Shown: positions 2,303 to 11,110 of the stretch, piece after piece
How the letters are laid out: each line of letters opens with the position of its first letter
How positions within the stretch are numbered: position 1 is the first letter of the stretch
Source of the DNA: Myxococcota bacterium
GTDB taxonomy: Bacteria > Myxococcota > JADLHZ01
DNA length: 11,110 nucleotides
Direction of reading: 5' to 3'
Assembly (NCBI GenBank): GCA_044359465.1
Contig: JBIKMD010000045.1
Location: 1 to 11,110, forward strand
The notes under the pieces: generated by a model
Database searches by the model: none
Told to the model about the DNA's origin: nothing
The model's input: only the letters and a program-made list of their open reading frames with translations
Position numbers and translations under genes: made by a program

Positions 2303-5300
2303 ATGGCGGAACCCGTAGTCGAAGGCACAGCCGAGCGCCCGAAAGTCGCAAAGTCGGCCAGACCAGACGAACGTCGCAAGCAATGGCGCTTCTCCGATAC
2401 CTCTCGCGTCGAGTACATGGCGCAAGGGCGGCGCTCTGTTTCCTTCCTCGGTAACCTGTCGCTCGGCGGGTGTTTTCTTCGCAGCGCAGACACCCTGACA
2501 GTGGGTGCTGCGGCTGACTTCAATTTATACCTGGAGGACGGGCAACCACCGATTGTGGTCCGCGGTGAAGTGATTGACTGCCGCCGCGGCGGCGCGCACG
2601 TGCAGTTCTCGGCGGACCAAGAAGTGCCGTTGCTCAAGCTGCGTGACTTCCTCTCACGGGTCGTCGTGCCGAAGCTCGAAAGTAACGTCACCAGCACCCG
2701 TGGTGATCCCGTGCGTGTGCTGGAGCTTTCCGCTTGTTATCAAACACTCGACAGACATGAAGATGCACTCGCGCTGCACCGTCACTGGGCAGAAATGCGG
2801 GTGCGCGACCTACGATCGTGGGAGCAGCTCGCGAGCATGCTTCTGCGCCGCGCCGAAGCTGCAGACGTGGAAAACGCATGGAGCTGGCTCGAAGAGATTG
2901 AGAGCGTCCTCGTCAAGGCGCGTCGCCACGGTCTCAGCGAAGTCCTAGACGTCGTAGACAAGGCTGCCCAGAGTTTGCGCGGCCGTAGCGAGCGCCGTCG
3001 TCAAGAAACGCAGCAAAAGCAAGAAGCCCTCTTACTCGACATGCGCGTGCAGGCAGAAGTCGAGGCCAAGTTCCAAGCGCTCGAAGCCGAGCGACTAGCC
3101 AAATTCGAACGAGAAGCGGAGTCACTACGTGCGGAGCGAGAGCGTTTTGAAACGGACAGAGCGGCATTCATGGAGATGCGTGCGGGCTTCCAGAGCGAAA
3201 TGGACGAGCAGCGCGCGAAGGCCGAGGTTCTGGAGGCACGCGCTCGTGAGATTAGCCAGCTGGCTGAGGCAGCTGCTGCCAACGAGAACGCCGCGCGCGC
3301 TGCCCGCGAGCAAGCCGAAGATGTTCGTCGTTCGTTAGAACAACGCGAAGCGATGGTCGCTGCCTCAGAGCTGGCATTGCAGCAGCGCCAAGAGGCCGTG
3401 GCGGCGCTCGAGCCCTCGCTTGCTGCAAGAGCGCAGTCTTGTGAGACGCGCGAGCGCGAGCTCTCATTGCGCGATGAGGCGGTAAAGGAGCAAGCCGAAG
3501 CCCTACGTTCTCAGACGGAAGCATTGCGGTCGCAAAACGAAGCGTTAGAAGAGACACGCCGCGCGCTTCACACCAGCGAATTGGCGCTGGCTGAGGAACG
3601 GCGCGCACTCGAACACGCGCGTCATGAGCACCAGCAAGCCGTCGCTCGCGCGATGCAAGAGCGCGAATCGCTCGAAGGCGACGTTCGCGCGTTCGGCGAA
3701 CGGCAGACGGCCGAGCGTTTGGCGCTGCACTCAGCAAACGAACAGCTCACACAGACGCGCGAGCTGCTTGCGTCAGACCGTGAGCGCTTTGAAGACGAAC
3801 GTCGTGAGGCACGCGAAGCTCAGGAGAAGGCACGCACCGAGCTGCAGGCGCAACGCGCGGCGCTCGCTGATGAGCGCGCCGTGCTGGAGGTGCAAAAACG
3901 CGATCAAACAGAGGCTCAAGAAGCGCTCGCGATGCGAGACGCCACGCTGGAAGAGCGCGCCAAAGCGCTTGGCCAGGGTGAAGTGGCATTGAGCGCGCGC
4001 GATGAAGCACTCGGTCAGCGCGAACGGGGCGTGAGCGACAGTGAGCGTGCGTTGACCGATGCTCAACACGCGTTGAGCGAACGCGAACGAGGGCTGAGCG
4101 AACGCGAACGGGTGTTGAGCGAACGCGAACGAGTACTGAGCGAACGCGAACGGGTGTCGAGCGAACGCGAGGCCGCGGTAGCCCTGGCCGATGAAACCCT
4201 GGAGGCGAAGAGCAAGGCCCTCGAAAGCGATCGTGGCGCCATGGATGAGCTAGCGCGTGAAGTGGAAGCCAAGGAGAAGAAGCTCACTCACGACCGCAGT
4301 GTGCTCATGCGCGAGCGGGAAAAGCTCGTGCGTGACCAAAATGCGTTCCGAGCGCGTGAGCGAGACGTGAGCGAGCGCGAAACGAAGTTGCTCGTCGGAG
4401 AGGAATCGCTCGGCAAAGCACGTGATGCGTTGGAACGTGCCACAGATGCTTGGCGGCGTGATCGTGGCGCCCTCGACGAGGAACGCAGCACACACCTCTC
4501 TGCGCTTTGGACGCTAGCCATGGAGCGACAGCGTTTCTTGCTCGAGCACGATGACGCGTTGACGCGCCTTGGCGTGGATCGCGCATCGCTCGAGGCGACG
4601 CAGCGCGAGCAGGAGCGTCGCTCTGCAGCCTTGGCGGAAGATCGCGCGTCGCTTGCCAAGCGTGAAGAACACTTGGCGGCGCACCGGGCCGAAGTGGAAT
4701 CTTTGGCGGCGCGTGCCGAAGAAAAACATCTGCAGTCGACTGCGCTCGATGCAACGCTCGAAGAACGGCGTGAGCGCCATGAGTCGATCGAGCTCGAGCT
4801 TCGAGACAGAAGGGCACAGCTCGACAAACGCGACGCCGAGCTCACTGCGCTCGATGTTCGTGTGCGCGAGCTAGAAGCCGAGACTAAGGCGTTGAATGAG
4901 CGTTTGGCGCGACGAGAGGCGGAGCTCGGGACGCGTGATGCGCAGCTCGTCAGCAAAGATAACGAGCTTGCGCATCGGGACGATGCGCTCATGGCGAAGG
5001 ATCGTCAGCTCGCCGAGCGTGAAGACCAATTGCGAGCGGACGAGGCCAAACTAGCTGTGGCCCTGGCCGTTGCAGCGGCTGAAGCAGCGAGGGTTCAAGC
5101 GGAGGCGTCTGCGGCAGAAGCAGCCAAGCTGCGTGCAGAGGCCGAAGCGGCCGCCGCCGAGCTAGATGTGGACATCAACACGGAAGAACCGATGGTGGCA
5201 GCGTCGGTCGAGGTGGCAGCGTCGGTCGAGGCTAGTGTCGAAACCCCGTCGCCTTTGGTGGAGCTCGAAGCAGAGCTGGTGGCGGCGCCACCTGCAGCCG

Positions 5301-5416
5301 AACTAGAGGTCGATCTCTCCGACGCAAGCGATGATGATCATGATGATGTGCAAATTGATGACACGACGCTCACACCTGCAGCGCCGAACGACGAGATTCA
5401 AATCGACACCGAATAG
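2303..5416 (+). CDS. Giant (1037 aa) PilZ-domain protein. It has an N-terminal c-di-GMP-binding PilZ domain, an ~850-aa E/A/R-rich heptad coiled-coil stalk, and an acidic D/E-rich C-terminal tail.
   Basis: The PilZ signature motifs are present at the N-terminus: RxxxR (R-RKQW-R, residues ~25-30) and, ~20 residues later, (D/N)xSxxG (NLSLGG). These are followed by a beta-rich segment (IVVRGEVIDCRRGGAHVQF). The remainder is low-complexity coiled coil (ERERVLSERERVLSERERV, AEAEAAAAEL). The tail is DDDHDDVQIDD...IQIDTE. The gene lies 44 bp after the SPFH gene on the same strand. The next in-frame upstream stop is at 2273-2275, so the ATG at 2303 is the first canonical start. Confidence 0.8.
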   Translation: MAEPVVEGTAERPKVAKSARPDERRKQWRFSDTSRVEYMAQGRRSVSFLGNLSLGGCFLRSADTLTVGAAADFNLYLEDGQPPIVVRGEVIDCRRGGAHVQFSADQEVPLLKLRDFLSRVVVPKLESNVTSTRGDPVRVLELSACYQTLDRHEDALALHRHWAEMRVRDLRSWEQLASMLLRRAEAADVENAWSWLEEIESVLVKARRHGLSEVLDVVDKAAQSLRGRSERRRQETQQKQEALLLDMRVQAEVEAKFQALEAERLAKFEREAESLRAERERFETDRAAFMEMRAGFQSEMDEQRAKAEVLEARAREISQLAEAAAANENAARAAREQAEDVRRSLEQREAMVAASELALQQRQEAVAALEPSLAARAQSCETRERELSLRDEAVKEQAEALRSQTEALRSQNEALEETRRALHTSELALAEERRALEHARHEHQQAVARAMQERESLEGDVRAFGERQTAERLALHSANEQLTQTRELLASDRERFEDERREAREAQEKARTELQAQRAALADERAVLEVQKRDQTEAQEALAMRDATLEERAKALGQGEVALSARDEALGQRERGVSDSERALTDAQHALSERERGLSERERVLSERERVLSERERVSSEREAAVALADETLEAKSKALESDRGAMDELAREVEAKEKKLTHDRSVLMREREKLVRDQNAFRARERDVSERETKLLVGEESLGKARDALERATDAWRRDRGALDEERSTHLSALWTLAMERQRFLLEHDDALTRLGVDRASLEATQREQERRSAALAEDRASLAKREEHLAAHRAEVESLAARAEEKHLQSTALDATLEERRERHESIELELRDRRAQLDKRDAELTALDVRVRELEAETKALNERLARREAELGTRDAQLVSKDNELAHRDDALMAKDRQLAEREDQLRADEAKLAVALAVAAAEAARVQAEASAAEAAKLRAEAEAAAAELDVDINTEEPMVAASVEVAASVEASVETPSPLVELEAELVAAPPAAELEVDLSDASDDDHDDVQIDDTTLTPAAPNDEIQIDTE
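4075..4170 (+). repeat. 21-bp near-perfect tandem repeat (GAGCGAACGCGAACG + 6 variable nt), about 4.5 copies. It encodes the heptads SERERGL/SERERVL/SERERVL/SERERVS inside the coiled-coil gene.
   Basis: The 15-mer GAGCGAACGCGAACG recurs at 4075, 4096, 4117 and 4138, with a partial copy at 4159. The period is 21 nt, which is 7 aa, an in-frame heptad. Confidence 0.85.
5198..5231 (+). repeat. 18-bp tandem duplication (GCAGCGTCGGTCGAGG x2) encoding AASVEV/AASVEA near the C-terminus of the PilZ coiled-coil protein.
   Basis: Direct reading: gcagcgtcggtcgagg is at 5198-5213 and again at 5216-5231. Confidence 0.7.
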
Positions 5417-5595: not shown

Positions 5596-6033
5596 TTAGT
5601 TGGACGATTGCTTGAGCATGGCATCGACCCACTCTTGGACTTTATTCACCAAGAGATCGTGATGCCCTGCAGGCAACCTGCGCGCTTGCGCCAGTAGCTT
5701 TTGCTCTACCGGCGTTTGTGTGTCCGGGTAGTGCACAATTGACTCGCGCAGGAAATCTGGCGCGCTCTCGGCGAAGGCCAAGCGCAACACGTATTCCACT
5801 TCGCTCAGTTCGAAGGTCTTGCAGATGCGTCTCACGACATCCGCTGAAGGCTTGGACAGTCCAAGCTCCCATTGACCCACGTACCCGGCAGAGACGCTTA
5901 GCGCCCTGGCCATTTCACGCTGCGACATCTTGCGATCTTTACGCACGGCGCGAATTACATCGGAAAAGCGTTCGTACTGTTTGACGTCCACAAAGCTCCT
6001 CCCCATCTCGAAGTTCGCAGTGGGGTATAACAC
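5596..6033 (-). CDS. XRE-family (Cro/C1-type) helix-turn-helix transcriptional regulator, 145 aa, with a ~70-aa C-terminal domain of unknown function.
   Basis: HTH_XRE signature: MSQREMARALSVSAGYVGQWELGLSKPSADVVRRICKTFELS. The track start at 6033 is GTG. An internal ATG at 6006-6008 (MGRSFVDV...) is an equally plausible start. Confidence 0.8.
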   Translation of the reverse strand: MLYPTANFEMGRSFVDVKQYERFSDVIRAVRKDRKMSQREMARALSVSAGYVGQWELGLSKPSADVVRRICKTFELSEVEYVLRLAFAESAPDFLRESIVHYPDTQTPVEQKLLAQARRLPAGHHDLLVNKVQEWVDAMLKQSSN

Positions 6034-6473
6034 ACGCGATCTCGTTCCACCGCTCGATGTTTAGGCTCAAGCTAACGAAAACCGCTGGGACCACGCTTAC
6101 ATGCTTGATAGGCACAAGCAAGCCCCCCGCGATTCGATATGTGAGATTTAGCGATTGCGAGGAAGCTGTACACTTATTCATGAACTTTCTAGGCCATTTG
6201 TCTCTTGTCTTGGGGCGTCATTTGTCCTTGATTGACGGGTTGCGTTGCGCGCGGCCTGGATACTCGCAGAATTGATGGATGACATGGGCCTACATGCAGC
6301 AAATCTGGGCTCGGGGAGGGCGGCTTTGGCGCAAAACACTAGTGGAACGCTTGGTTTCGTCTGGCGCAGTCATCAGAATTCCGATCACGTTCGCTGGGAC
6401 GCCGAGTCGACGATGCGTGGGGCATCGCCCTTCATGCCGGCTGGCCCACGGGCGCGAGTGAAACGTTTACTCA

Positions 6474-6510
6474 GGTCATGGTCCATGTCATGGCGGTGAC
6501 GGAATGACCC
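6474..6510. promoter_or_regulatory. Cluster of GGTCATGG-like direct repeats (GGTCATGG-n5-TGTCATGG-n1-GGTGACGG-n1-ATGACC) abutting the start codon of the Cys-rich lipoprotein gene. Candidate response-regulator operator.
   Basis: Read directly: ggtcatgg at 6474-6481, tgtcatgg at 6486-6493, ggtgacgg at 6495-6502, and atgacc at 6504-6509 (which is the ATG plus ACC codon). The same 8-mer GGTCATGG and GGTGAC occur upstream of the 7912..9219 lipoprotein gene. Confidence 0.35.
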
Positions 6511-7412
6511 GCGCACTCTTTGTTCTTGTTCTTCTCTCTCCCTTGCTCTCCGCTTGTCAGAAGTCGGACTGCGAAGCGATCCGTGAGCACGCGACGGACT
6601 GCCGCAACGTTGCGAGCAATCCTGCCGGTCGCGACGGCGGGATTTGCGAGAAGTACCGCGACGTCAAAGGCAAGGCCGGCATGGAAACTTTCGCCACCTG
6701 CACGACGCGGCTTCGCTGTGATGACAAGGTTGGACTTGCCGCTTGTATCGACGAGTCGACCAATGCCGATGCGCCGGCGTGCGAACGCCTCAATGGCTAC
6801 TTGGTCGCTTGCGGCCTCGAGCCCGCGAGTGGCGGCCTTTCGTGCAGTGAGTACGGCGGAGCCGAGACGCTGCCTGCCTTCACTGGTTACGTGCAGTGCG
6901 TGATTGATCGCGGCTGTTTGACCGAAGCAGACACTGCCGCTGCGCTCGACGACTGTCGTAGCCAAACCCTTGGCAGCGCCGCCGCGACGTTCACGGCTTG
7001 TCAGCGGGTTGAGCAGCGCGCGCAAGCTTGCTCAGAGACGCAGCCGACGATTGCCACGTGCTCGCTGCAGATTGCGGCTTTCACGGCTGCCTCCGTAGAT
7101 AAATGGGCTGAATGTTATCTCGGTACCGAATGCGGTGATTTCACTGCACGCGCGCGCTGCGCCGAGCAACTCGAGCTAGCGCAAACGAGCGATGTAGGAA
7201 CGACGGCTGCGTGCAATAAAGTCGGTTTGTTTCAACTGCGCTGCGGCGTGCGAACGCTGCCTGTCATTGGTGACCCGGCGACTTGTGTGCGGTCGCTAGA
7301 CAATTTCAGCGACGACAGCGCCGGCGCATTTGCCGATTGTTTGCTCGAAGTCGAAGACTGCAATGATGCCGCGGGCCTGCTTAGCTGCGCCGGGAAGCTG
7401 CAAGCGAATTAG
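6504..7412 (+). CDS. Cysteine-rich lipoprotein (302 aa, 25 Cys) built from repeated C-x(6-11)-C-x(12-16)-C modules. Function unknown.
   Basis: Signal peptide with consensus lipobox: MTRALFVLVLLSPLLSA-C (L-S-A-C). The mature part has Cys spaced in recurring patterns (DCEAIREHATDCRN...GIC; ACIDESTNADAPACERLNGYLVAC; ECGDFTARARCAEQ...AAC; DCLLEVEDCNDAAGLLSC). The overlapping minus-strand ORF 6471..7025 has no such features. Confidence 0.75.
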   Translation: MTRALFVLVLLSPLLSACQKSDCEAIREHATDCRNVASNPAGRDGGICEKYRDVKGKAGMETFATCTTRLRCDDKVGLAACIDESTNADAPACERLNGYLVACGLEPASGGLSCSEYGGAETLPAFTGYVQCVIDRGCLTEADTAAALDDCRSQTLGSAAATFTACQRVEQRAQACSETQPTIATCSLQIAAFTAASVDKWAECYLGTECGDFTARARCAEQLELAQTSDVGTTAACNKVGLFQLRCGVRTLPVIGDPATCVRSLDNFSDDSAGAFADCLLEVEDCNDAAGLLSCAGKLQAN

Positions 7413-7631
7413 CGCCCTCACTTAGCTTGCTGCGCTGAAACGTGAGCGTTTGGATCGGCAAGCCGGGCTCGATCATGTGCGCCATTTCGGTGGACTTCAC
7501 GCTCGTCGGTATCGGCCGACGCGTCCGCGAGTCCCTTGCGTCTAGAGGAGAGACGCACTTTGTCACGTTTGCTTGTCACCGTGGAGCGATGGACTCGGCT
7601 AGGCTGGCCCTCGCGCGCTCAGACGGTTAAG

Positions 7632-7889
7632 ATGCAGCGCATGAAACTATTCATCCTTGCCGTTGCCGCCGCGACTTCTTTGTTTGCCTGCGCGCCCGCC
7701 AAAGACAGCTCGCGCTGGACACCCTACGCCGGCTGCGGTGAGAGCCAGTGCCGCAGCTGGAACTCGTCGTGCGAAGCCGATTGTATGAACAAGAGTGTTC
7801 GCAAAGACACGGTGAATGCCGATGAGTGTATGAGTGTGTGTGGTTCGAAGATGAGCGAATGCAAACAGTCCTGCACCGCAATCAACTAG
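7632..7889 (+). CDS. Small secreted lipoprotein (about 85 aa precursor) with four C-x3/4-C pairs (CGESQC, CEADC, CMSVC, CKQSC). Twin-Cx3C disulfide mini-protein.
   Basis: The track ORF 7536..7889 starts at a TTG and has a 32-aa non-signal leader. Internal ATGs at 7632 (MQRMKLF) and 7641 (MKLF) give a proper signal peptide with lipobox-like L-F-A-C (MQRMKLFILAVAAATSLFA-C). I chose the ATG at 7632. Confidence 0.6.
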   Translation: MQRMKLFILAVAAATSLFACAPAKDSSRWTPYAGCGESQCRSWNSSCEADCMNKSVRKDTVNADECMSVCGSKMSECKQSCTAIN

Positions 7890-7911
7890 CAGAACGAGTC
7901 AATACGTGTAG

Positions 7912-9219
7912 CTACTTGGGTCTCAGCTCAATCGGTGAGTCCGTCAGATCTACCTCTTCCCCAGCCGCAACATCGACAAAGCGTTGAAGCCCTAACTCGC
8001 GCGCGCTGTAGCCTTCGTAGTCTTTTCCTCCAAAGCTCGTTTGCAGTGCGATGAAGTACCTGCCGGGTGGTACCGCGATGACAAAGGTTCCATCGTAGAG
8101 CGTTTCGTCGTTGTAGAAGTCGCGAGCTGCAGTGGGGGGAACGAAGGGTCCAATGCCGAAGCCGGCAGGTCTCGGATCTTTGCCATCAGGCAGTGCGAAC
8201 GCGATCGGCTGTGCGTTGGGGATACCGGGCACGGGAAGGTGGCGGCCGCGAATGAACCCTAAGGGCACCGCTGGCGGCTCGGTGACGTGGCTATGGCAGA
8301 CAGTGCACGAGCCATTGCCGATGCGTCCGTCTGAGCTGAAAGCGCGCGCCTTGGGAACGCCGAGCGCATTGATGCCCGCGGACCCGAGCGCGTACTCGGT
8401 GCCATCGGTGAAGCCTGCTGCTACAGCGTCAGTGTTGTTGAGCCTACGTTCGACTTCTGCGCGCCAAGGCCAAGAGAAGGCCGCGTTGCTCCAGATTGCA
8501 GTGTAGTACGAGCGCTGCGCTAAGGTTTTGTCTCCGCGCCGAAGGGCAAGATCGCCGATCATGGCCTGCATTCCTGCAATGTTGTTTGGCGCGATGGGGG
8601 TGTCCCAAATCCGACGCGATCGTTCTAGCGTGAGGGGATCACGCGAGCCCTGCAGCCTCGCCGTATCAGCAACGACTTCGTCGAAAGCCGCCGCGGCTTC
8701 TTCGAGCATGGCCGGGGTCGCGTTCGGATCGCCGCCAGTCGAGAGCGTCACGCCAAAGAGCGTGAAAGCGCCGTAAGTCATCGTTGTGGGCCGAATGCCG
8801 TCGAGCGCGCCAGCAATCGCGTCCGTGCGTCCGAGCGCGCGGGCTTCGAAGAGAAACAAGGTCGCCCGCCAGAGTGGCAAGCGTGCGTCGTCAGGAAAAT
8901 AGGGAATCGCCGCATCAAACGCTGCGACGCCCTCTGCGACGTACTCAGTCCGATCGAGCTCGGCGAGCGCCATGAGTGCGGCGGCGCCAATGGCGCGTGC
9001 GCGTTCTGGGCTGTCCGGAACGTCCTCATGCAAGAAACGCCAAACAGCATCGAAGGCGGCAACATCATAGTTCAGCGCCCAAATGACATCTGCCATGGGG
9101 TAACTGACATCTCGAGGTTGCGGGGGCGCGGTTTGGGCTTGGGTGTAGGAAGCAGGCGCCGGCCGGCGAACCTCAGCCGCGGTACACGCGATCAACAACA
9201 GACAAAGGAGAGCTTTCAT
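7912..9219 (-). CDS. Lipoprotein (435 aa). It has an Ala-rich helical (TPR-like) N-terminal half, a single CxxCH haem-c binding motif (GSCTVCHSH), and a beta-rich C-terminal domain. Function unknown.
   Basis: Signal peptide plus lipobox: MKALLCLLLIA-C (L-I-A-C). There is one CTVCH motif (CxxCH). The gene lies immediately downstream of, and co-oriented with, the response-regulator gene (78-bp gap). Confidence 0.75.
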   Translation of the reverse strand: MKALLCLLLIACTAAEVRRPAPASYTQAQTAPPQPRDVSYPMADVIWALNYDVAAFDAVWRFLHEDVPDSPERARAIGAAALMALAELDRTEYVAEGVAAFDAAIPYFPDDARLPLWRATLFLFEARALGRTDAIAGALDGIRPTTMTYGAFTLFGVTLSTGGDPNATPAMLEEAAAAFDEVVADTARLQGSRDPLTLERSRRIWDTPIAPNNIAGMQAMIGDLALRRGDKTLAQRSYYTAIWSNAAFSWPWRAEVERRLNNTDAVAAGFTDGTEYALGSAGINALGVPKARAFSSDGRIGNGSCTVCHSHVTEPPAVPLGFIRGRHLPVPGIPNAQPIAFALPDGKDPRPAGFGIGPFVPPTAARDFYNDETLYDGTFVIAVPPGRYFIALQTSFGGKDYEGYSARELGLQRFVDVAAGEEVDLTDSPIELRPK

Positions 9220-9254
9220 GACCTGAGCATAGTGAACTCATCGGCAGTGCCTAT

Positions 9255-9297
9255 CCGTCAAAGGTCATGACCAGAGGTCACCCCTCACCCATGACCC
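9255..9297. promoter_or_regulatory. Motif cluster upstream of the haem-lipoprotein gene. It contains the perfect palindrome GGTCATGACC (9263-9272), GGTCAC (9276-9281), and GGTCATGG on the gene strand (revcomp of 9289-9296). GGTCATG also overlaps the start codon (revcomp of 9217-9223).
   Basis: On the gene (minus) strand the region reads TGAGGGTCATGGGTGAGGGGTGACCTCTGGTCATGACCTTTGACGG ... CAGGTCATGAAAGC. It shares GGTCATGG, GGTGAC and TTGACGG with the 6474-6510 cluster. Confidence 0.35.
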
Positions 9298-9933
9298 TCA
9301 ACCATAACCCAACGATTTACCCTTGAGCGCCGCTTGGGTGCGGTCGCTGACCTCCAGCTTTACCAAAATACCGCTGACGTGGTTCTTCACGGTACCTTCA
9401 CTAAGGTACAGCGCGGCTGCGATTTCTTTGTTGGAAGCGCCACGGCAGATGAGGCGCAAAACGTCGTTCTCTCGCTCGGTGAGCGGATTAGGAGGCGCTG
9501 CCGGGCGTGTTTGCACGCGGGCAAGCTCTGCTAGCACCTTGCTCGCGACGGTCGGATCCAGAAACGATTGGCCCGCGGCGGCGGCGTGCACGGCTTCGCG
9601 TAGGCGTTCGCCGGTGGCGTCTTTTAGCAAATAACCCACGGCTCCGGCGCGCAGTGCTTCGAAGATGGAAGCATCATCGCCAAAGGTCGTCAGCATGAGC
9701 ACGCGGCACGATGGCAGGCTGATGCCCAATCGTCTTGTTGCCTCGATTCCGTTCATGCCGGGCATTTGCAAATCCATGAGGACGACGTCTGCCCGATGCA
9801 ACACACAGGCCGCCACGGCCGCTTCACCGTTTCCCGCATCTGCGACGACTTCGAGCGTTGGATCCACGCTGAGGACCGCGCGGAGCCCTTCGCGAAACAA
9901 CGGTTGGTCGTCCGCTACGACAACACGGGTCAT
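9298..9933 (-). CDS. NarL/FixJ (LuxR-type HTH) family two-component response regulator. Receiver domain plus a C-terminal LuxR-type DNA-binding domain.
   Basis: REC motifs: VVVADDQPLFREG ... VVLMDLQMPGMNG ... LTTFGDD ... VGYLLKD. LuxR-type HTH: LTERENDVLRLICRGASNKEIAAALYLSEGTVKNHVSGILVKLEVSDRTQA. Its ATG (revcomp of 9931-9933) overlaps the kinase TGA (revcomp of 9930-9932) as ATGA. Confidence 0.9.
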   Translation of the reverse strand: MTRVVVADDQPLFREGLRAVLSVDPTLEVVADAGNGEAAVAACVLHRADVVLMDLQMPGMNGIEATRRLGISLPSCRVLMLTTFGDDASIFEALRAGAVGYLLKDATGERLREAVHAAAAGQSFLDPTVASKVLAELARVQTRPAAPPNPLTERENDVLRLICRGASNKEIAAALYLSEGTVKNHVSGILVKLEVSDRTQAALKGKSLGYG

Positions 9934-10763
9934 GCTGGCACGCTCACTTTTACGCTGAAACCGCGGCTACTGGGCGTGATGTTCACTGTGCCTCCTACGA
10001 GCTCAACGCGCTCGCGCAGGCCGGTCAACCCGTTGCCTGGCTGCCAAGTCGCCGCGGCGTTCACGCCGTCATCCTGAATCTCGAGGAGCAGGTGCTTTGG
10101 TGCGTAAGTGAGCCGAACAGAAACGACCTTCGCATCAGCGTGCTTGCGCGCATTGGTGAGCGACTCTTGCGCCGCGCGATAGACGACAAATGCAGCGGCG
10201 CCTGGAACCGAACGCACTTCGCCGAACGACTCGAGCACGACGTGCAGTCCAGTGCTCTGGGTGTCTGCGATCAGCGCAAGAAGTGCCTCGCCGAGTGGTT
10301 TCTCCGACGTTTCGCGTAGCATGCTCACGGAACGGCGCAGCTCGGATAACGCTTCGCGAATGAGCGCTTGCACCTGCGTTAGGCGCTCAGCTGACCCTAT
10401 GGGGTTTGCGCGCGCCGCTTCGAGCTGAATGCTCGCCACGCTCAGGCTGTGGCCGAGACCATCATGGATCTCTCTCGCAATACGATTACGCTCGCGTTCG
10501 GCGCTCAGCGCTTCGATTTCGAGCCGCGCTTTCATTTCTCGTTTGGCGACGAGCGTGAAAATCACCACGAAGGCAAAAGCCGAGGCGATGCCTGCGAACC
10601 CATTCGGTGAACGCGAGATGAGGACGCTGAACGCAGCGGCGACCACGACGCCAACGGGAAGCGGGAAGAACAAAACCAAGGTGCTAACGAAGGGCATGCT
10701 GACGATGAAGCTGCTGCCCTTGGTCAAGATGACGATCGACGCGGCAAGCACGCCATAGATCAC
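9930..10763 (-). CDS. Membrane histidine kinase of the HisKA_3 (NarX/DesK/LiaS-like) type. It has 3-4 N-terminal transmembrane helices with very short loops, a HisKA_3 H-box and an HATPase_c domain.
   Basis: H-box: ERERNRIAREIHDGLGHSLS. ATPase motifs: NARKHADA ... DDGVN ... GNGLTGLRERV. The N-terminal part is almost entirely hydrophobic (IYGVLAASIVILT, FIVSMPFVSTLVLFFPLPVGVVVAAAFSVLI, GFAGIASAFAFVVIFTLVA). The track start is GTG at 10761-10763. The frame stays open upstream to 10973 (see findings). Confidence 0.85.
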   Translation of the reverse strand: MIYGVLAASIVILTKGSSFIVSMPFVSTLVLFFPLPVGVVVAAAFSVLISRSPNGFAGIASAFAFVVIFTLVAKREMKARLEIEALSAERERNRIAREIHDGLGHSLSVASIQLEAARANPIGSAERLTQVQALIREALSELRRSVSMLRETSEKPLGEALLALIADTQSTGLHVVLESFGEVRSVPGAAAFVVYRAAQESLTNARKHADAKVVSVRLTYAPKHLLLEIQDDGVNAAATWQPGNGLTGLRERVELVGGTVNITPSSRGFSVKVSVPA

Positions 10764-10973
10764 GATGCAGGTGTTGATGAGCGCTGTGTTCTGCTTTTGT
10801 TCAGCGAACCTTAGTCCAACTGAGCCCGTGAAGAGCAGCGCCGTCGTTAGCGCGACCAGCAGCGGGCGCTCCGCGCTTTCGATCGTGGTAGGCCTTGCGC
10901 GGCGCCCACAAGGATGGCGACCACGCTCGCAAGCGTTGTTTCTGCCGTGATGAAGCGCGGGCCGCTCAAGTGA

Positions 10974-11110
10974 TCAGAGGCTGGCGGCGATGAGCTCGGC
11001 GACGTCTTTGGCGCCCACTTTGTCATCCATGCCTTTGTCCTTGATGCCGTCGCCGAGCATGGTGAGGCAGAACGGACACGCGGAGCCTACAGTATTTGGA
11101 TTCTTGGCTA
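10974..11110 (-). CDS. C-terminal fragment (44 aa, 5' part outside the window) of a CCG-domain (Fe-S)-binding oxidoreductase. The family is HdrD/GlpC/GlcF/LutA-like.
   Basis: My own translation of the minus strand in the frame ending at TGA (revcomp of 10974-10976) gives ...AKNPNTVGSACPFCLTMLGDGIKDKGMDDKVGAKDVAELIAASL*. The CPxCxxxL segment near the C-terminus is the terminal CxxC of the CCG (Cys-rich) domain. The ORF is absent from the track because it is incomplete. Confidence 0.45.
   Translation of the reverse strand, partial: AKNPNTVGSACPFCLTMLGDGIKDKGMDDKVGAKDVAELIAASL

Follow-up and report, generated by a model that had tools for sequence, protein, structure and literature searches.

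A conserved tripartite operator-like element upstream of a haem-motif lipoprotein gene in a DesK/DesR-like module of Myxococcota

In the DesK/DesR system of Bacillus subtilis and its relatives (YvfT/YvfU, BA5598/97, and SA1313/14), a HisKA_3 histidine kinase that takes its input through membrane helices (five transmembrane helices in DesK) works with a NarL-type response regulator on a single adjacent target gene, which encodes a desaturase or an ABC transporter; the signal is membrane thickness or temperature. The LiaS/LiaR and VraS/VraR systems join an intramembrane-sensing HisKA_3 kinase to a neighbouring envelope-protein target and are commonly autoregulated; they have a LiaF-type accessory protein and a palindromic box of their own. 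The operator of the des promoter comprises three regulator-binding regions, which make up one inverted repeat plus one direct repeat and lie just to the upstream side of the core promoter (PMC7726353). Here we describe an element of similar layout in an 11,110-nt stretch of DNA from a Myxococcota bacterium (contig JBIKMD010000045.1; hereafter the window), where a HisKA_3 kinase gene and a NarL-type regulator gene stand beside the gene for a lipoprotein with a haem motif (CXXCH). A first-pass annotation had proposed that two motif clusters, site 1 upstream of a Cys-rich lipoprotein gene and site 2 upstream of the haem-lipoprotein gene, mark a regulon of this two-component system. Comparison with orthologous loci makes it likely that the two clusters differ in kind, with site 2 a tripartite operator of the adjacent regulator in front of a leaderless target and site 1 no such operator.

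Site 2 (9263-9296 on the minus strand; all coordinates are those of the window) reads GGTCA-N11-TGACC-N8-TGACC and lies upstream of the ATG of the haem-lipoprotein gene. Its parts and the genes around it are as follows.

9292-9296, minus strand: upstream inverted half-site GGTCA, starting 2 nt past the regulator stop codon (pairwise identity 0.79 versus 0.29 in the flank)
9276-9280, minus strand: distal direct half-site TGACC (TGAC invariant in 14/14 aligned promoters; pairwise identity 0.95)
9268-9272, minus strand: extra GGTCA, specific to the window, which completes the palindrome GGTCATGACC
9263-9267, minus strand: proximal direct half-site TGACC, separated from the distal half-site by 8 nt and lying 43 nt ahead of the ATG (TGAC invariant in 14/14)
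9226-9231, minus strand: -10-like hexamer TATGCT of a putative promoter, at -12 to -7 from the A of the haem-gene ATG
7912-9219, minus strand: haem(CXXCH)-lipoprotein gene, 435 amino acids with a single CXXCH in the motif GNGSCT[VIL]CH; proposed target gene of site 2
9298-9933, minus strand: NarL/LuxR-type response regulator gene (Pfam Response_reg, 7e-26; GerE, 4e-18); presumed site 2 binder
9930-10763, minus strand: HisKA_3 histidine kinase gene (Pfam HisKA_3, 1.1e-17; HATPase_c, 6.8e-07)

We fetched 17 genome loci bearing the haem-lipoprotein gene and compared these and further loci (among them L027 from a metagenome and L031 from the complete genome of Sandaracinus amylolyticus) with the window; L-numbers denote the loci compared. 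Besides the window, 14 orthologous Myxococcota loci (12 genome loci, L027, and L031) contain the pattern TGAC[CGT]-N8-TGAC[CG]; these 14 make up the whole group with 46 to 55% identity, and in every carrier the 8-nt spacing is invariant and the element ends 43 to 45 nt before the haem-gene ATG. GGTCA stands 11 nt upstream of the distal TGACC in 12 of the 14 promoters that we aligned (a set that includes the window) and also in S. amylolyticus. This arm is missing in L005 and L007, where the last codons of the regulator gene occupy its position, and in L006. Across the aligned promoters, the three half-sites have pairwise identities of 0.95, 0.95, and 0.79, compared with 0.29 to 0.34 for the flanks. 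A variant with altered spacing, GGTCA-N10-TGACC-N7-TGACC, occurs in L017. No such element is found in the six orthologous loci at which no two-component system adjoins the haem gene (L014, L015, L016, L018, L028, and L029).

When the window was scanned with a 26-nt operator matrix trained on the orthologous promoters alone, 9259-9284 (minus strand) ranked first with 23.6 bits. Only 13 sites, all in promoters, exceeded 28 bits in 248 kb of related DNA scanned on both strands, where the next match scored 15.4; the composite motif was confined to haem promoters and two kinase promoters in 248 to 270 kb of related loci. The second-best match in the window (8540-8565, minus strand, 15.8 bits) falls inside the haem gene and was treated as chance because it covers conserved AMIGDLALR codons, lacks TGACC cores, and is unmatched in orthologues. 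Together, these comparisons indicate that site 2 is a real, phylogenetically conserved, operator-like cis-element.

The words by which the clusters had originally been recognized are, at site 2, pieces of this element: the upstream GGTCA arm lies within GGTCATGG, the distal TGACC within GGTGACC, and the proximal TGACC within GGTCATGACC. Taken by itself, the 8-mer GGTCATGG has 21 copies in 259 kb, 8 of them inside haem-promoter elements and 4 in two palindromes upstream of kinase genes. The palindrome GGTCATGACC is indeed perfect and maps to 9263-9272, but it is not a conserved feature since it is one base off the spacer common among orthologues, which read nnTC[GA]TGACC at this position (e.g., GATCATGACC in L003). 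Another of the words, TTGACGG, lies near site 2 at 9255-9261 (minus strand). We rejected it as a -35 element: orthologues have t[ct]cg[ag]t[gc]g instead, and its spacing to any -10 element is wrong.

The haem-lipoprotein gene had been described as lying directly downstream of the HisKA_3 kinase/NarL-type regulator pair, and the gene positions agree with this. Such a pair adjoins the haem gene in 13 of the 17 genome loci, in four arrangements: kinase-regulator-haem, haem-kinase-regulator (L003 and L004), convergent (L012), and divergent (L017). The pair also stands beside the haem gene in L027 and in S. amylolyticus, and in all these loci the flanking regulator orthologues are 50 to 68% identical. 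Elements of the site 2 type are found only where the pair adjoins, regardless of gene order, and the haem gene keeps the element whether the regulator gene lies 0.5 kb off, downstream, or in convergent or divergent orientation. Upstream of the kinase gene itself, L005 and L007 carry a perfect 20-bp palindrome, GGTCATGGGTACCCATGACC, 46 nt before the kinase GTG (L005:2092-2111 and L007:4171-4190), together with a TAnnnn -10-like element at -13 to -8; judged by this arrangement, the palindrome is probably an autoregulatory operator with another leaderless start. We sought such sites upstream of every kinase gene and found clear ones only in these two loci and none in the window, where the 5' end of the kinase gene seems to be missing. 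Because the kinase and regulator genes directly follow the haem gene in L003 and L004, they probably share its promoter there, and in L017 the motif sites lie within the divergent region common to the haem gene and the two-component genes. The element thus follows the haem gene through rearrangements and vanishes without the two-component system, and the same half-site fronts the two-component operon, which argues that the adjacent NarL-type regulator is most likely the protein that binds site 2. This part of the earlier proposal, a regulon of the adjacent two-component system that includes the haem gene, is supported by the conserved element and by co-occurrence, whereas the Cys-rich gene, and with it the two-gene regulon, is not. 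The comparisons support a one-gene regulon, predicted to consist of the haem-lipoprotein gene.

Both signaling proteins resemble those of the Des family. The regulator combines REC and GerE domains, with D8, D9, and the acceptor Asp D54 read from its sequence (context VVLMDLQMPGMNG); its closest solved relatives are VraR (5hev, 3e-45), DevR, NarL, DesR (4ldz, 8e-33), and ChrA (4yn8, 1e-32). DesK is the closest solved relative of the kinase (top PDB match, 1e-15), and the window kinase carries both HisKA_3 and HATPase_c. Its shortened N terminus (residues 1 to 75) is hydrophobic and seems to include no extracytoplasmic domain. The window module shares with DesK/DesR a HisKA_3 kinase with a putative membrane-helix input, a NarL-type regulator, a single adjacent target gene, and a tripartite layout of inverted and direct repeats (binding here is predicted). 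It differs in its phylum, Myxococcota, in its half-site TGACC (we liken the operators by architecture and not by the sequence of Pdes), in the apparently leaderless mRNA of its target, and in the target itself, a TPR-like lipoprotein with CXXCH. We therefore take the module to work like the Des family without being a Des orthologue.

Other known systems were also compared. VraR is the best match of the regulator, and the module resembles LiaS/LiaR and VraS/VraR in its type of kinase and in the position of its target; in contrast to those systems, no LiaF-like gene was seen in the window and the operator is tripartite. NarL, with its 7-2-7 sites, belongs to the same regulator family, in which dimers bind short repeats in varied arrangements, but the window kinase has no periplasmic sensor or HAMP domain, and the NCBIfam NarL model, although the best for the regulator, falls below its cutoff (165 versus 250 bits). 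An operator of the NarL/NarP nitrate regulon was rejected at both sites, since no TACYYMT heptamer lies within 6400-6520 or 9220-9300 (3 in the whole window versus 1.7 expected). ChrS/ChrA and HrrS/HrrA of Corynebacterium also pair intramembrane-sensing HisKA_3 kinases with NarL-type regulators and have haem-related targets; the parallel is thematic only, through the CXXCH of the target, and the target genes are unrelated. Our literature search found nothing on TGACC with NarL-family regulators or on the haem-lipoprotein family.

Downstream of the element, the 14 aligned promoters are unconserved except for an A at -11 (10/14) or -12 (4/14), a T at -7 or -8, and a C at -1 (14/14), and the 14 promoters that carry the N8 element have no Shine-Dalgarno sequence at a usable distance. 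Judged from these positions, the haem-lipoprotein mRNA is probably leaderless. L014 and L018, which have no adjacent two-component system, and L017, with its variant element, carry AGGAGG 6 to 12 nt before the haem-gene ATG; leaderless versus leadered expression seems to have switched together with the regulatory architecture. A strict sigma-70 consensus scan returned no promoters in either upstream region, a result that is uninformative for weak, activator-dependent, or high-GC promoters and is expected at the haem gene if its promoter is activator dependent.

We propose the following mechanism. The kinase would sense a membrane or envelope signal, presumed because its input appears to consist of membrane helices only. 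Two dimers of the phosphorylated regulator would then bind site 2, the first occupying the inverted pair and the second reaching onto the direct repeat, much as DesR would at the des promoter. From about -48 to -77, bound regulator would activate the haem-gene promoter, and we favor activation over repression. Because this promoter has only a weak -10 element (TATGCT, with A at -11) and no recognizable -35, the regulator would recruit RNA polymerase, and transcription would begin on the ATG's A or no more than 1 nt from it, giving a leaderless haem-lipoprotein mRNA.

The haem lipoprotein has 39 database relatives, 18 of which we aligned. Source annotation gives it 394 amino acids starting at Met42 (9096), and the 435-amino-acid form is without a database record. 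We place the true start at the ATG at 9219, because the lipobox Cys12 and several residues ahead of Met42 do not vary among the 18 homologues, and neither does GNGSCT[VIL]CH; the 394-amino-acid call probably misses the lipoprotein signal peptide. An AlphaFold2 model (predicted local distance difference test score [pLDDT], 85.5; predicted template modeling score [pTM], 0.88) shows a TPR-like helical domain (residues ~40 to 272), a loop with C305-x-x-C308-H309, and a C-terminal beta-sandwich. A Foldseek search of the PDB with this model returned generic TPR proteins only (E > 1e-3), and neither this lipoprotein nor the Cys-rich one has a match in Pfam or NCBIfam. From the invariant CXXCH and the periplasmic location expected of a lipoprotein, we infer that haem is bound covalently. 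More speculatively, the module might be a self-contained envelope-sensing circuit, confined to Myxococcota in the genomes searched, in which a DesK-like kinase with a membrane-only input and a NarL-type regulator would have a single target, a mono-haem TPR lipoprotein with a leaderless mRNA. Beyond being an output, the lipoprotein would then serve as a periplasmic co-sensor of redox state or haem that feeds back on the kinase, itself devoid of a periplasmic domain. The idea fits the tight co-inheritance of the three genes in four orders and the operator's loss where the two-component system is lacking, neither of which proves it, and we regard it as rather doubtful.

We next turn to site 1, for which these features matter.

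6474-6510, plus strand: the flagged cluster (site 1), abutting the Cys-rich gene's start codon; judged outside the operator family
6504-7412, plus strand: Cys-rich lipoprotein gene, 302 amino acids with 25 Cys; lipobox LLSAC
5596-6033, minus strand: XRE-family helix-turn-helix (HTH) regulator gene (Pfam HTH_3, 2e-12)

Site 1 is laid out as GGTCA(6474)-N18-TGACG(6497)-N3-TGACC(6505), the last TGACC lying inside the Met-Thr start ATGACC of the Cys-rich gene. Its half-site spacings are thus N18 and N3, versus N11 and N8 at site 2, and no single motif model covers both regions: nowhere in 6430-6530 does the matrix give more than -12 bits (rank 139 of 22170), versus 23.6 bits at site 2, and we rejected site 1 as a canonical operator. 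With flexible spacing, site 1 returns only as a minus-strand pair, CATGACA-N5-CATGACC (6472-6492), with a 12-bp period instead of 13; one half-site, CCATGACCT (the reverse complement of 6473-6481), scores 12.9 bits and the second, 12 bp away, 6.7 bits. A leaderless gene 43 to 45 nt past this pair was considered and rejected, since no ATG is nearer than one at 38 nt, whose frame has 16 codons. Site 1 breaks down into an orphan good half-site (CCATGACCT), a 12-bp direct repeat of local extent, a GTGACGG that looks like a stop, and ATGACC as the Met-Thr start. We regard it as a promoter-proximal or 5' untranslated stretch of the Cys-rich lipoprotein gene and, by these comparisons, most likely a chance look-alike.

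A shared regulon would predict conservation of the motif upstream of the orthologues of both genes; it is kept for the haem gene and lost for the Cys-rich gene. The Cys-rich lipoprotein has six homologues, and the half-sites are not conserved upstream of it in L019, L022, and L020. In the closest upstream regions, GGTCATGG becomes GTGCCGCC or CTCGCCCA, GGTGACGG becomes GATGCCGG or GGTGGCG, and ATGACC becomes ATGACT or GTGATC; the sole conserved block within site 1 is CCATGT(C/A)ATGGCG(G/A)TG. The Cys-rich gene is absent from all 17 haem-gene genome loci and in none of them syntenic with the two-component system; its conserved neighbour is an XRE-type regulator, and L020 keeps it without the kinase-regulator-haem module at the corresponding position.

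Several further observations concern this region. An XRE HTH gene adjoins the Cys-rich gene in L020, L021, L023, L024, and L025, on the same strand in L023 to L025 and divergently in the window, L020, and L021; an M4/M36 peptidase gene lies near the Cys-rich gene in L020, L023, and L025. Another Cys-rich secreted open reading frame (ORF), ending in C(E/Q) before the stop codon, precedes the gene in L019 to L022. The window is without that ORF, and tblastn found no remnant of it there. A 9-codon frame (6478-6507, plus strand; ATG GTC CAT GTC ATG GCG GTG ACG GAA TGA) overlaps the Cys-rich start by ATGA and is not conserved, L019 having ATG TAA at this place. Site 1 (6470-6480, plus strand) and the start region of the haem gene (9217-9227, minus strand) also have in common an 11-mer, CTCAGGTCATG, with GTT[TC]ACT before both copies. 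This match is longer than the 8-mer noted at first; neither copy is conserved in orthologues, and the sharing is probably chance.

The case for a common motif had drawn on word counts, which we re-examined. As stated, GGTCATGG is found at both sites, with exactly two copies in the window (6474-6481, plus strand; 9289-9296, minus strand) versus 0.15 expected, and 4 of 200 shuffles reach two. GGTGAC[GC] also occurs at both (6495-6501, plus strand; 9276-9282, minus strand) but is found at four other places too (6 versus 2.46 expected; 13 of 200 shuffles reach six). TTGACGG does not recur in the same order at both sites, since site 1 has GTGACGG only and the sole plus-strand TTGACGG (6232-6238) lies ~240 nt upstream of GGTCATGG, the wrong order. 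Site 1 does contain a direct repeat, though of two 10-mer copies 12 bp apart (CAGGTCATGG and CATGTCATGG) and not of three. Three of six GGTCATG matches overlap start codons, namely, the GGTC-ATG of the haem gene and the ATGACC of the regulator and Cys-rich genes. The argument that a shared 8-mer is unlikely by chance fails because P is 0.23 for two 110-nt regions of this composition to have an 8-mer or more in common in the same orientation, a value obtained alike from simulation and from random segment pairs of the window. The composite GGTCATGG-N(0-20)-GGTGAC is rarer, at P ~3e-4 per 11 kb of random sequence, but was defined post hoc.

Site 1 could still be a genuine lineage-specific second operator of the same regulator, making a two-gene regulon; because it overlaps the promoter-proximal region and the start codon, binding would repress the Cys-rich gene. 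Its half-site CCATGACCT is on par with true half-sites, and such pairs are rare, with only three non-promoter cases, site 1 included, of ortholog-trained direct half-site pairs at 11- to 15-bp spacing in 270 kb on both strands. The composite probability taken at face value, the recurrence of CTCAGGTCATG at the haem gene's start region, and the 12-bp direct spacing upstream of the haem gene in L017 point the same way. Every spacing at site 1, however, departs from the invariant N11/N8, as the full matrix score reflects; its orientation is opposite to that of the Cys-rich gene, its half-sites are lost upstream of a homologue that is 85% identical, the pattern statistics are post hoc, and the gene both lacks synteny with the two-component system and persists in L020 without the module there. 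We consider such a second operator improbable, whether the regulator would bind the minus-strand pair at 6472-6492, the TGACG/TGACC pair, or both. It is similarly unlikely that site 1 serves the divergent XRE-family regulator as an operator or promoter element. The XRE gene is adjacent to the Cys-rich gene at every homologous locus long enough to judge, and site 1 offers a 12-bp direct repeat, a GGTCAT...ATGACC inverted repeat, and the partly conserved block given above; yet the repeats themselves are not conserved, only three upstream sequences are informative, the XRE-to-Cys-gene intergenic regions of L023 and L025 show no common motif, and the block could equally be a -10 or ribosome-binding sequence.

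For site 2, the competing explanation is that a different protein binds it, or that it is an RNA element in a kinase-regulator-haem transcript, its association with the two-component system reflecting gene linkage. In the window, site 2 would be transcribed by read-through because it starts 2 nt past the regulator stop and no terminator was detected in 9150-9400; its GGTCA and TGACC arms could pair, and its binder is a predicted one. The arms, however, are conserved without compensatory change (RNAalifold consensus, -4 kcal/mol with a covariation term of +0.18), a direct repeat cannot pair, and Rfam gave 0 matches. A GerE-type HTH dimer of the NarL/LuxR family is expected to target half-site repeats of ~5 to 7 nt whose spacing is fixed. 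The competing explanation is further countered by the persistence of the element with the haem gene through rearrangements, by its disappearance without the two-component system, and by the related palindrome upstream of the kinase gene in L005 and L007. We hold this explanation to be slightly less probable still than those for site 1.

Some observations weigh against our preferred interpretation, in which site 2 is an operator of the adjacent regulator and site 1 a look-alike. The six loci without the motif all belong to a more distant group with 37 to 39% identity and the loci are phylogenetically related, so the contrast between presence and absence does not amount to 21 independent events; L017, a member of that distant group, carries both the two-component system and the motif variant. 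Assignment of the regulator is suggested by co-occurrence. The stoichiometry of two dimers is a guess because a 13-bp direct spacing is not a helical repeat, and L017 shows that 12-bp direct spacing is possible upstream of a distant relative's haem gene. A resemblance such as that of site 1 is expected ~0.1 times per window by our estimate, somewhat rarer than trivial chance, and the Cys-rich upstream regions that we compared come from genomes in which the two-component system is absent or its presence not established. Finally, the window kinase is ~53 amino acids shorter at its N terminus than its ~360-amino-acid orthologues. The homology, which begins with residue 54 of the orthologues, extends as far as 10817 and thus past the annotated GTG (10763) on its upstream side, and the kinase frame stays open through 10764-10973 (minus strand) back to the stop of the preceding Fer4/CCG gene, with no ATG, GTG, or TTG. 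The gene thus appears to be 5' truncated and seems to lack one or more initial transmembrane helices as well as whatever promoter it may have had; because of this loss, the two-component system may be impaired in this genome or read through from upstream.

Elsewhere, the window has a G+C content of ~60% and matches a 90.7-kb JGI metagenome contig, and homologues of its genes come from Myxococcota. Compared with 6504-11110 of the window, L020 (JADLHZ010000072.1) has the same flanks, with the Cys-rich lipoprotein gene on one side and Fer4/CCG, BamA-like, RibA-like/GTP cyclohydrolase II, and HTH_17 genes on the other, and only small ORFs in place of the kinase, regulator, and haem genes; the three-gene module behaves as an insertion/deletion unit. 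A 1,037-amino-acid protein (2303-5416, plus strand) combines an N-terminal PilZ domain with ~900 Glu/Arg/Ala-rich residues that form an apparent coiled coil, including tandem SERERVL repeats; its gene adjoins a Band7/SPFH gene (933-2258) and has no relation to the motif clusters.

The proposal of a two-gene regulon should thus be dropped, and the flagged coordinates 6474-6510 are probably not functional as an operator of this kind. The real feature, as far as sequence comparison can tell, would be a DesR-like tripartite operator belonging to a two-component module of Myxococcota that had not been described before and that has a single conserved target. Operators of such architecture are already known in the DesR-type family, and current understanding is not overturned. 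What the comparison yields is a testable prediction, comprising a precise operator (GGTCA-N11-TGACC-N8-TGACC), the protein likely to bind it, the one target gene conserved with it, and a start that is probably leaderless. The cultured S. amylolyticus, with its complete genome, has all of these as well. The comparison would give a first functional handle on a haem-motif lipoprotein family without Pfam or NCBIfam assignment and on an uncharacterized DesK-like two-component family in Myxococcota.

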